This document shows positions 1 through 1,108 of a stretch of 1,108 nucleotides of DNA, piece by piece. The notes under the pieces were generated by a model. That model had not been told where the DNA came from, ran no database searches, and saw only the letters and a list, made by a program, of their open reading frames with translations. Source of the DNA: Escherichia coli (GTDB taxonomy: Bacteria > Pseudomonadota > Gammaproteobacteria > Enterobacterales > Enterobacteriaceae); NCBI RefSeq assembly GCF_003334385.1, contig NZ_QOWN01000127.1, one strand, 5' to 3'. Both the position numbers and the translations under genes were made by a program. Position 1 is the stretch's first letter; each line of letters starts with the position of its first letter.

Positions 1-240
1 AATGGATTGCGTGTTACGGGTGACACGGCCATCAATGGCACCAACTGCTGCATCAATACGGTCAGTACGACCAGACAGGGCCACCAGACCATCGTTAACA
101 GAAATGGTGTTCTTTGCACCTTCTGCACGGGTCAGGGTGCCATCAGAACTCACACCAACCAGTGTGCGGGATTCGACTTTTGCAGCTGTTGCAGCAGCCG
201 CAGCATCAATCTTGTCGGTACGCGTGGTCAGTTTACCAAG
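1..240 (-). other. Coiled-coil stalk-like region (residues ~203-282) with an N@d-type core motif at the window edge (residues 275-282, bases 1-24)
   Basis: Heptad register: d = L257, I264, I271, N278; a = V268, V275, I282. The terminal V-T-R-N-T-Q-S-I fits the [IV]-x-x-N-T-x-x-[IV] ion-coordinating motif described for trimeric autotransporter coiled coils. Ala-rich run [12 protein letters not shown] and two RTD[KR]IDAA copies 51 residues apart. Confidence 0.5.
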
Positions 241-846
241 ATTTTGCTTCTGCGCTTCAAGCTCGCCTTTCTGAGCATCAAGCTCATTCGCAACAATGGT
301 GGAGTTGGCGGCCTCCCCTGCCAGATAGCGCTGTAAAGACATGTGTTCTTCTATTTCACTCGGATCTGCTGCCACATTTCCATACTTATCCAAGCCGACG
401 TTGGTTTCCATCTGCTGGATTGCTGAAACGCGGTTGTACAGGTCACGGATATTCTGTTCTGTCAGTAAATCTCCGCTTTTAAAATCCACTGATGTCGCAG
501 CCTTCAATGCCGCAGCCTTCATGAAATCATGAACTTCTTTATCATAAACAGTAAATGTTGTTGAGCCGTCTGCGGAGGTAATTGTAACATTACCATTGCC
601 ATCTATTTTACTGAGAAGTGGAATCGGCTTATTTCTCTGCTCTTTCAAACTCCCATTCGGACCCCACTTTATATAAGCCGTATTTGTAGCACCATCAAAA
701 TGTATCTTATACATAGAACCTACATTACCGTTTTCCGTTCGCGCAGAATAATCCCCCGTAACACCCTGTGCAAACGACACACAAGGAACAAACAGCGCTG
801 AAAAAACTGCCGCAGACAAAACAGCCTTTGTAAATTTCTTGCTCAT
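1..846 (-). CDS. Secreted coiled-coil surface protein, 3' partial (282 codons in window); putative trimeric autotransporter adhesin-like (YadA/Eib/UpaG-type) protein with a non-canonical N-terminal domain
   Basis: Hand translation of the reverse complement: ATG at 846..844 follows an in-frame TAA seven codons upstream with no alternative start codon between them, and the frame is open for 282 codons to base 1. N-terminus MSKKFTK + 19-residue hydrophobic stretch + VSFA|QG is a typical Sec signal peptide. C-terminal 80 residues have heptad periodicity with small or hydrophobic residues at a/d and a terminal V-T-R-N-T-Q-S-I motif. Absent from the supplied ORF track because there is no stop codon in the window. 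Confidence 0.85.
367..768 (-). other. N-terminal mature domain (residues ~27-160) of unknown fold; Gly/Asn/Thr-rich strand-like segment followed by a helical segment; lacks recognisable YadA-head 14-residue repeats
   Basis: Read from the translation: segments such as [20 protein letters not shown] look beta-rich, while [16 protein letters not shown]...[20 protein letters not shown] look helical. I see no NSVAIG-type left-handed beta-roll repeats. Lower GC (about 35-43% over 541-720) than the stalk-encoding part. Confidence 0.4.
769..846 (-). other. Sec-type signal peptide (residues 1-26), predicted signal peptidase I cleavage after VSFA
   Basis: Positively charged n-region (MSKKFTK), hydrophobic h-region ([16 protein letters not shown]), small residues at -3/-1 (S-F-A) followed by Q. 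No lipobox: the Cys at residue 22 is preceded by V-P, which does not fit [LVI][ASTVI][GAS]C. Confidence 0.7.
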
Positions 847-848
847 GT

Positions 849-856
849 GGTATACC
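849..856. promoter_or_regulatory. Perfect 8-bp palindrome GGTATACC between the -10 element and the start codon (candidate operator half of a pair)
   Basis: Read directly from the sequence. Shares the GTATAC core with 870-877 and 1082-1087, and overlaps the predicted transcription start and SD region. Confidence 0.35.
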
Positions 857-858
857 CT
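855..858 (-). promoter_or_regulatory. Weak Shine-Dalgarno-like AGGG, 8 nt upstream of the start codon
   Basis: Minus strand reads tat-AGGG-tataccac-ATG. Only a partial match to AGGAGG; it would sit at the extreme 5' end of the transcript if the promoter call is right. Confidence 0.3.
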
Positions 859-863
859 ATAAA

Positions 864-892
864 ATTATCTGTATACAAATAAAACAGTTCAA
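864..892 (-). promoter_or_regulatory. Candidate sigma70 promoter for the minus-strand gene: -35 TTGAAC (892..887), 17-bp spacer, -10 GATAAT (869..864)
   Basis: Minus-strand reading is TTGAAC-tgttttatttgtataca-GATAAT. Each hexamer is 5/6 to consensus with optimal 17-bp spacing, and the -10 lies 17 nt upstream of the ATG, implying a very short leader of roughly 10-13 nt. Confidence 0.4.
870..877. promoter_or_regulatory. Perfect 8-bp palindrome TGTATACA inside the -35/-10 spacer (candidate operator)
   Basis: Read directly from the sequence. Centre is 21 bp (two helical turns) from the centre of GGTATACC at 849-856. Confidence 0.35.
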
Positions 893-949
893 CGTCGGAT
901 ATATAAAGAAAATCTGATGTCTCGCTGCTCTCATGAGCTTACTCCTGAA

Positions 950-987
950 GAAATTCCGAATTTTAATATGAAGTTTTTCGGAATTTC
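950..987. repeat. Perfect 11-bp inverted repeat GAAATTCCGAA (950-960) / TTCGGAATTTC (977-987) with a 16-nt AT-rich spacer
   Basis: Arms are exact reverse complements. The pairing cannot extend outwards (949 a vs 988 c) or inwards (961 t vs 976 t). Not followed by a U-tract on either strand. Centre lies about 79 bp upstream of the -35 centre. Confidence 0.6.
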
Positions 988-1002
988 CTTACTATAACAT
1001 CG

Positions 1003-1030
1003 GTGATATCACGTCCGCGAAGGGATATCC
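1003..1030. repeat. Two GATATC-centred palindromes, GTGATATCAC (1003-1012) and GGATATCC (1023-1030), centres 19 bp apart
   Basis: Both are perfect palindromes read directly from the sequence, and both are followed by CAC/AC. Function unknown; possible protein-binding sites. Confidence 0.4.
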
Positions 1031-1081
1031 ACATTACGACTGGCCTGCCACTTATGCTGTCTCTTTATTCATCAACAATTT

Positions 1082-1087
1082 GTATAC
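1082..1087. repeat. Third GTATAC palindrome (context tttGTATACgg) in the distal upstream region
   Basis: Read directly from the sequence. I found no GTATAC within the 846-bp coding region, so all three copies lie in the 262-bp upstream region. Confidence 0.3.
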
Positions 1088-1108
1088 GGTTACATCTTTA
1101 ATTGTGAA

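Follow-up and report, generated by a model that had tools for sequence, protein, structure and literature searches.

Base composition and probable recombinational mosaicism of an eibA-type prophage adhesin gene from Escherichia coli

Overview

We analyzed a stretch of Escherichia coli DNA of 1,108 nucleotides (nt), here called the window, which by exact-sequence match is the entire draft contig QOWN01000127.1 of assembly GCA_003334385.1. Judged from its sequence, it is made up of 846 nt from the 5′ end of an eibA-type gene, as carried by lambdoid E. coli prophages, and of 262 nt from the spacer upstream. A preliminary description had noted a change in guanine-plus-cytosine (GC) content along the reading frame and had taken it as a sign of modular shuffling. 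Very probably, this prophage gene owes its GC contrast mostly to the protein that it encodes and is in addition a recombinational mosaic. The parts of the gene are the following.

1 to 846, minus strand: codons 1 to 282 of an eibA-like gene for an immunoglobulin-binding trimeric autotransporter adhesin (translation and match to eibA, AF151091); the 3′ end with the anchor lies beyond the contig
766 to 846, minus strand: signal peptide, residues 1 to 27 (inspection of the translation)
409 to 765, minus strand: hypervariable N-terminal "Eib region," residues 28 to 146 (identity comparison); the predicted fold extends to ca. residue 180
492 to 521, minus strand: 15-nt tandem duplication in a variable loop, residues 109 to 118 (direct repeat, copies 93% identical)
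208 to 408, minus strand: linker and heptad-like coiled-coil segment, residues 147 to 213 (some alleles with insertions)
1 to 207, minus strand: conserved stalk, residues 214 to 282, comprising the saddle plus the first part of the C-terminal coiled coil (match to 2XQH)
847 to 1108, no strand assigned: promoter-proximal 262 nt of an AT-rich spacer of ca. 680 nt that runs from a tail-fiber-assembly-like gene (DUF4376/orf-191) to eib

Base composition along the window

Exact counts gave GC contents of 53.3% at positions 1 to 240, 38.3% at 541 to 720, and 35.9% at 847 to 1108, in agreement with the hand counts of the preliminary description; the coding part had 46.8% and the entire window 44.2%. 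In sliding intervals of 120 nt, GC ran at 51 to 55% over positions 1 to 330, 37.5 to 42% over 450 to 750, and 33 to 41% upstream. Change points were evaluated by a likelihood-ratio test with 1,000 permutations. The top single change point fell after base 448 (52.0 versus 38.9% GC; log-likelihood ratio, 9.2), a value reached by 1 of the 1,000 permutations, and the one found in the coding part alone, after base 333 (53.8 versus 42.3% GC), was weaker (26 of 1,000). The contrast announced by the preliminary description was thus confirmed, although it is a gradient and not a sharp break. Nor is the stalk, described as GC-richer, in fact GC-rich: its GC is at the level of the core E. coli genes beside the homologous loci (52.5%), and it is the spacer and the first half of the gene that deviate, toward AT.

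The same profile was seen in every homologous locus compared, where the GC landscape displayed a trough of ca. 1.1 kb with 35 to 41% GC inside flanks of 52 to 62%. In these loci, the eib gene had a GC content of 0.49 and a GC content at third codon positions (GC3) of 0.45 to 0.46, the spacer had a GC content of 0.38 to 0.39 (seven loci), and the tail genes ranged from 0.52 to 0.62 (GC3, 0.53 to 0.71). Three layers very probably account for this profile. The front of the eib gene and the spacer form an AT-shifted, moron-like island within the GC-richer (52 to 62%) tail region, the contrast within the open reading frame (ORF) stems mainly from the amino acid makeup of the Eib region versus that of the stalk, and a weaker 5′-to-3′ rise at synonymous sites, significant only with the anchor included, is superimposed.

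A regulatory reading of the AT-rich tract, suggested already by the preliminary description, is that spacer and 5′ end are a target of H-NS-type silencing, their composition being kept for regulation, with the gene silent by default until an activator or a change in temperature lifts the silencing. We regard it as plausible but lean slightly against it. The ca. 1.1-kb tract within flanks that are GC-richer, like the core genes, would suit such a role, as would the high conservation of the spacer. Enhanced Eib expression requires the ibrAB island (Sandt 2002, as cited in PMC7649339), and wild-type strains express little EibG, and still less of it when the temperature is reduced (PMC4352079); both observations would be compatible with silencing and counter-silencing, without demonstrating them. 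On the other hand, the H-NS high-affinity motif TCGATAAATT had no match in the window with up to 2 mismatches (1.5 expected), and no paper linking Eib to H-NS was found in the literature collection searched, the three co-mentions looking incidental by title and abstract. Furthermore, conservation is not peculiar to the spacer. The DUF4376 gene and the spacer are 92 to 99% identical among loci, and because this adjacent phage gene shares the conservation, the conserved 5′ flank is best read, by sequence comparison, as plain phage backbone.

Source of the contrast within the reading frame

The 15-point GC contrast within the ORF is mainly a matter of protein composition, expressed at codon positions 1 and 2, since GC1 differs between the two ends, GC3 does not differ significantly, and the protein alone predicts most of the difference. 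When positions 541 to 720 were compared with 1 to 240, GC1 was 0.40 versus 0.64 (p = 0.006), GC2 was 0.45 versus 0.56 (not significant), and GC3 was 0.30 versus 0.40 (p = 0.29). Amino acids alone predicted GC contents of 0.479 for the N-terminal segment and 0.588 for the stalk with E. coli core codon usage, and of 0.455 and 0.545 with uniform synonymous usage, that is, 0.09 to 0.11 of the observed 0.15 (60 to 73%). Along similar lines, Gly, Ala, Arg, and Pro made up 23% of the N-terminal segment and 35% of the stalk, while Phe, Tyr, Met, Ile, Asn, and Lys made up 35 and 15%, respectively (residue-class comparison, p = 0.011). The Eib region is rich in Asn, Lys, Tyr, Ile, and Phe, and the coiled coil and saddle are rich in Ala, Gly, and Arg.

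The preliminary description had proposed a comparison with host codon usage. GC3 is low throughout the window gene (0.41, versus 0.58 in core genes and 0.53 to 0.71 in the neighboring phage genes), and both segments fall below the GC expected from host codon usage. Within the window, GC3 did not differ significantly between the N-terminal domain (N-domain) and the stalk at any of the boundaries tried (p = 0.18 to 0.57); with the boundary set at the EibD-like segment, that of the stalk was even slightly lower (0.377 versus 0.419). As a caution, a GC step within an ORF is by itself no evidence of chimeric origin, and codon positions should be checked separately.

Mosaic structure from comparison with relatives

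Comparison with relatives, separately from composition, identifies the gene as a recombinational mosaic, because divergence is clustered and the best relatives are discordant along its length. Among 5,426 complete E. coli genomes, the N-domain DNA (positions 410 to 807) was found in only 10 genomes at 11 places, with no close match to this allele (best, 89.8%). The stalk DNA (1 to 207) was present in 67 genomes at 179 places, at least 99% identical in 17 genomes, and the spacer DNA (847 to 1108) in 32 genomes at 94 places, 96.6 to 98.5% identical in 27 of them, with up to six copies per genome.

We then compared the window, segment by segment, with 17 eib genes (L001 to L017). The upstream region was 97 to 98% identical in 14 of them and residues 214 to 282 were 100% identical in nine, while N-domain identities were 88, 83, 72, 68, 36, 31, and 26%, and five genes (L006, L008, L012, L013, and L014) had no such domain. 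Searched separately, as the preliminary description had advised, N-domain and stalk do occur in different combinations, the same upstream region and stalk carrying N-domains from 88% down to 31% identical or other passengers. The idea of shuffling stands because the two parts do not always co-occur, nor is the composition uniform; its original basis in composition is largely lost to the amino acid effect and the nonsignificant GC3 difference.

The nearest relatives change from segment to segment. For instance, L009, the closest in the N-domain (88%), is just 58% identical, with an insertion, over residues 147 to 213, while the closest over that segment, L003 and L004 (99%), have N-domains of 68 and 31% identity. 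The same segment is 76 to 85% identical in L002 and EibA and carries insertions of 26 to 34 residues in L001, L009, and L010. At the DNA level, L004 was 99.8% identical over positions 1 to 409, unalignable over 410 to 811, and 96% identical over 812 to 1108; L005 was 100% identical over 1 to 181 and 98% over 808 to 1108, with a different middle containing YadA-head repeats. The best-matching locus switches along the window, and at positions 481 to 540, none of the eight eibA-type loci in the alignment came close, the best reaching 68%. Two-breakpoint maximum chi-square values were 146 to 271, compared to a null maximum of 30, and were reached by 0 of 200 permutations. Identity breakpoints lie at ca. 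181, 295, 409, 450 to 510, and 630 to 810. The conserved 5′ flank reaches to ca. position 808, and hypervariability begins some 13 codons into the ORF. Synonymous divergence (dS) was 0 in the stalk and 0.09 to 0.45 in the N-domain (2.2 for L004), where the ratio of nonsynonymous to synonymous divergence (dN/dS) was 0.6 to 1.0. There are also chimeras inside the Eib region: in the relatives P0049, P0050, and P0055, the first half is of the L005 type and the second of the eibA type. Composition does not track this mosaic: the two most conserved parts are the spacer and the stalk, which stand at opposite extremes, the former being the richest in AT and the latter in GC.

The mechanism that we infer is homologous recombination or gene conversion among prophage-borne eib paralogs and between phages, most likely involving lambdoid prophages that are co-resident or incoming. 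Exchange would be anchored in the spacer and the first ca. 13 codons on one side and in the stalk and anchor on the other, and it would swap whole N-terminal cassettes as well as short patches inside them. Diversity at the exposed tip may be tolerated or selected, and the stalk, as the carrier of trimerization and immunoglobulin-binding determinants, may be constrained or homogenized. Such recombination agrees with the functional modularity demonstrated for these adhesins and with the published statement that trimeric autotransporter adhesins often shuffle their domains and recombine (preprint 10.64898/2025.12.25.695649).

Points against this account and other explanations

Several points weigh against a mosaic gene with a protein-driven contrast. 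GC3 in the first 107 codons was 0.32, versus 0.46 in the rest of the window (p = 0.21), and when the gene was completed with the 3′ end of L004, of which the DNA is 99.8% identical over positions 1 to 409, a GC3 change point appeared after codon 107 (0.32 versus 0.51; p = 0.016). The N-terminal part also has significantly lower GC3 than the stalk in L004, L005, L006, L008, and L014, whose N-terminal cassettes are more divergent. Because N-terminal GC3 is lower once the anchor is added and in these divergent alleles, a lower-GC source pool may have contributed to the N-terminal cassette. As for the mosaic, it was established from segment identities, maximum chi-square, and dS, and the window leaves out the anchor and the flanks of its own gene.

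Taken further, these GC3 data would make the GC break the junction of two segments with separate genomic origins, the head being a cassette of low GC grafted onto a stalk and anchor adapted to the host or phage. Consistent with this, GC3 rises in 17 of 17 eib genes from 0.21 to 0.44 in the passenger to 0.56 to 0.62 in the last ca. 107 codons (p from 0.04 to 2e-4). However, this family-wide step falls just past the left end of the window, in that the last ca. 107 codons are the C-terminal coiled coil and anchor, and eibA-type alleles, the window allele included, show no significant N-terminal drop in GC3. Together with the nonsignificant GC3 difference between N-domain and stalk within the window (change-point p = 0.21), the share of the contrast predicted from amino acids alone, and identity breakpoints that do not coincide with one compositional junction, this makes a graft at the GC break unlikely.

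The mosaic might also be an artifact, if reads of at least two eib paralogs of one genome had been joined during assembly via k-mers shared in the conserved core of the Eib region. A short contig with both ends in multicopy sequence, along which the best relatives switch, could look like this. Nevertheless, an identical contig was recorded in two samples, comparable mosaics exist in closed long-read genomes, the N-terminal half recurs unchanged in P0001, from another isolate, and the loop is shared by P0045, and we regard an assembly chimera as very improbable. Finally, chance fluctuation of GC in a short sequence, to which only the modest significance of the coding part alone could lend credit, is rejected by the permutation test on the whole window and is hardly conceivable given the recurrence of the profile in every homologous locus.

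Identity of the gene

The window contains a single long ORF on the minus strand, which starts with ATG at 846 to 844 and is still open at the left end, 282 codons later. The top match in the phage collection was eibA of prophage P-EibA (AF151091), with 100% coverage and 86.6% DNA identity, and residues 214 to 282 matched the EibD crystal-structure sequence 2XQH with an E value of 9.7e-24 (phmmer). The structures of EibD are 2XQH and 2XZR (Leo et al. 2011). These matches bear out the adhesin-like minus-strand ORF with N-terminal domain, stalk, and AT-rich upstream region of the preliminary description. By megablast, 27 of the 5,426 complete E. coli genomes had matches, all annotated as YadA C-terminal domain-containing proteins of ca. 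386 to 457 amino acids; RefSeq homologs under this annotation in the loci inspected had 386 to 422. Profile collections added little: the 282-residue product had no significant match in a Pfam scan, the window fragment had no match in NCBIfam, the matches in PHROGs were to families of unknown function only, and Rfam, searched with both strands, returned just a chance snoRNA match (E value, 0.82).

By inspection, the signal peptide combines a basic n-region, MSKKFTK, with a hydrophobic core and an SFA|Q site. Its first ca. 13 codons are kept across paralogs and the remainder exists in two versions; it is 100% identical in L001 and L009 and 50 to 79% identical in the other loci. The YadA-type anchor (PF03895) lies past codon 282; homologs that are 99.8 to 100% identical over positions 1 to 409 continue into a YadA anchor, and the C terminus of L004 matches NCBIfam YadA_autotrans (E value, 2.5e-18). 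Thus, of the traits of trimeric autotransporter adhesins (type Vc), the window holds a putative signal peptide and a predicted coiled-coil stalk, and of those of Eib proteins, a predicted saddle/coiled-coil Fc-binding segment and an N-terminal Eib region that aligns with that of EibA (68%) and distantly with those of EibC, EibD, and EibE. The window is an allelic variant of a known adhesin family showing known evolutionary behavior; Eib adhesins carried by prophages, the exchange of modules among adhesins, and extra genes of AT-rich composition in phages have all been described before.

Both ends of the window fall in sequence that is multicopy in E. coli genomes. For this reason, the short-read assembly probably broke at these points, and several eib paralogs are likely to be present in the source genome. 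Multicopy conserved flanks of this kind explain the breakage of eib genes into short-read contigs of ca. 1 kb, and since they break assemblies, eib diversity is probably undercounted in draft genomes.

The N-terminal Eib region

The name "Eib region" has been given to the N-terminal part of these proteins, for which structural information was lacking, and EibA is without the YadA-like head and neck found in EibC and EibD (PMC7568254). The window protein has the architecture of EibA. In EibA-type genes, the N-domain family is fused straight to the stalk, while in L005, P0069, and EibC/D/E, it is fused to a YadA-like head and neck. The most divergent patches of the region are at positions 451 to 510 and 631 to 810. 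In a protein alignment, the duplicate at 492 to 521 arose from a loop like that of P0045, which has the same loop without duplication.

An exhaustive HMMER search with the N-domain against 1.84 billion representative proteins gave 11 matches, six of which were Eib-type adhesins, all of E. coli type and amounting to about six clusters at 50% identity in that collection; of the other five, the two that were looked at are unrelated repeat proteins. A word-indexed search with the N-domain gave 59 proteins, nearly all of them partial E. coli proteins on contigs of 0.4 to 2.7 kb, which fits assembly breakage at repeated flanks. The AlphaFold2 model of residues 28 to 180 (positions 306 to 765; alignment of 35 sequences) had a mixed alpha/beta fold with a pLDDT of 87 and a pTM of 0.76, and no significant structural neighbor was found in the PDB. 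The Eib region thus combines a confident predicted structure with no recognizable relative among solved structures.

Tentatively, and with more doubt than conviction, these data could be extended to a picture in which the Eib region is an E. coli-restricted domain of unmatched fold, actively diversified by short-patch gene conversion among three to six eib paralogs per genome. The nearly identical AT-rich 5′ flank and the conserved stalk would then serve as recombination anchors. If true, this would be a cassette system varying the exposed tip of an immunoglobulin-binding adhesin, which might serve, for example, to evade immunity or to let strains recognize their own kind when they aggregate; cells with EibA and cells with EibD have been found to be mutually exclusive in coaggregation (PMC7568254).

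Stalk and immunoglobulin binding

Residues 214 to 282 are 100% identical in amino acid sequence to EibA. Fc-binding residues have been placed in this stalk segment, and the Asp that aligns with it in EibG has been shown to play a role (preprint 10.64898/2025.12.25.695649). By alignment, the 13-residue motif with the conserved Asp is present in the window protein. By sequence, its stalk contains the region implicated in immunoglobulin G Fc binding in Eib proteins, and nonimmune binding of immunoglobulins G and A may extend to this allele.

Candidate regulatory elements upstream

Two further features are found in the spacer.

864 to 892, minus strand: candidate sigma-70-type promoter, TTGAAC-17 nt-GATAAT (consensus scan)
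950 to 987, minus strand: stem-loop with a perfect 11-bp stem and a 16-nt loop (inverted repeat; RNA fold)

The promoter candidate is the sole site of its kind, with 0.9 expected, i.e., no better than chance. It is overlapped by a near-perfect palindrome of 18 bp, TTATCTGTATACAAATAA, at 865 to 882, and a related half-site, ATTTGTATAC, lies at 1078 to 1087, 211 nt upstream of the palindrome; together, the two look like an operator, as a candidate from sequence inspection. The stem-loop (−13.8 kcal/mol; z score, −2.5; no T-run) is the counterpart of one in AF151091, an entry in which stem_loop features are annotated on both sides of eibA, this one on the upstream side. It may mark the end of the tail fiber transcript or be a regulatory element. 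A terminator-like match at 825 to 809 was set aside, as it lies inside signal-peptide codons.

Prophage setting and known systems

In all the loci inspected, eib stood at the end of a lambdoid prophage, after J, a tail fiber gene, and DUF4376/orf-191, and always had orf-156 behind it; most of the loci then continued with a gene for an EaaA-like serine protease autotransporter (SPATE). This is the gene order of P-EibA (J-lom-orf401-orf191-eib-orf156-orf60-eaaA). The window itself is without flanking genes, and it is its 262 upstream nt that tie it to the spacer of the 14 prophage loci mentioned above.

The closest described relative, EibA (E. coli ECOR-9, prophage P-EibA, AF151091; Sandt and Hill 2000), likewise consists of signal peptide, Eib region, coiled coil, saddle, and coiled coil, and its upstream 262 nt, annotated stem-loop included, are 97% identical to those of the window. 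It differs in the Eib region (68% protein identity), in the signal peptide, which is of the other version (79% over 19 residues), and in the segment from 147 to 213, which is 76% identical and without the 7-residue heptad insertion. The other members of the Eib family (EibD, EibC, EibE, and EibG) are prophage-borne and adjoin orf-191 and orf-156, as in the homologous loci, but differ in that a beta-roll head of YadA type and a neck separate the Eib region from the stalk. EibC, EibD, and EibE share homology with the window protein in the saddle and C-terminal coiled coil (76 to 77% amino acid identity), and their Eib region is distant (26 to 27%); the ECOR-9 eibC, eibD, and eibE genes also have another, shorter upstream spacer, with just 29 nt matching the window.

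Phage morons, as described by Hendrix and Juhala, are extra genes in the late regions of lambdoid phages that have their own signals and a deviant composition. The eib gene resembles them in being an AT-shifted gene and spacer downstream of tail fiber genes, flanked by stem-loops, with GC and GC3 below those of its neighbors. As regards the signals of its own that a moron carries, the sole promoter-like match of eib is, as noted above, at chance level. Other trimeric autotransporter adhesins (YadA, UspA, BadA, and Saa) likewise pair an anchor and stalk that are conserved with passenger modules that can be exchanged. In eib, exchange also takes place as short patches within one domain and among several paralogs per genome that have an almost identical 5′ flank.

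Some neighboring sequences in the homologous loci deserve mention. Positions 6837 to 11588 of L001, and their equivalents elsewhere, hold orf-156 and, in most loci, a gene of ca. 4 kb for an S6-family (EaaA-like) autotransporter protease, with GC contents of 0.53 to 0.56, so that the AT-rich island is confined to the 5′ part of eib and the spacer. In L011 (NCTC9112), the IS21-family element ISEc12 (istAB; positions 3822 to 6120) sits in the spacer ca. 460 nt upstream of eib and replaces the DUF4376 neighborhood. A second AT-shifted extra gene, coding for an ompC-like porin (GC3, 0.38), is found among the prophage tail genes of L001 (JNEC-KY176) at positions 21893 to 23047.

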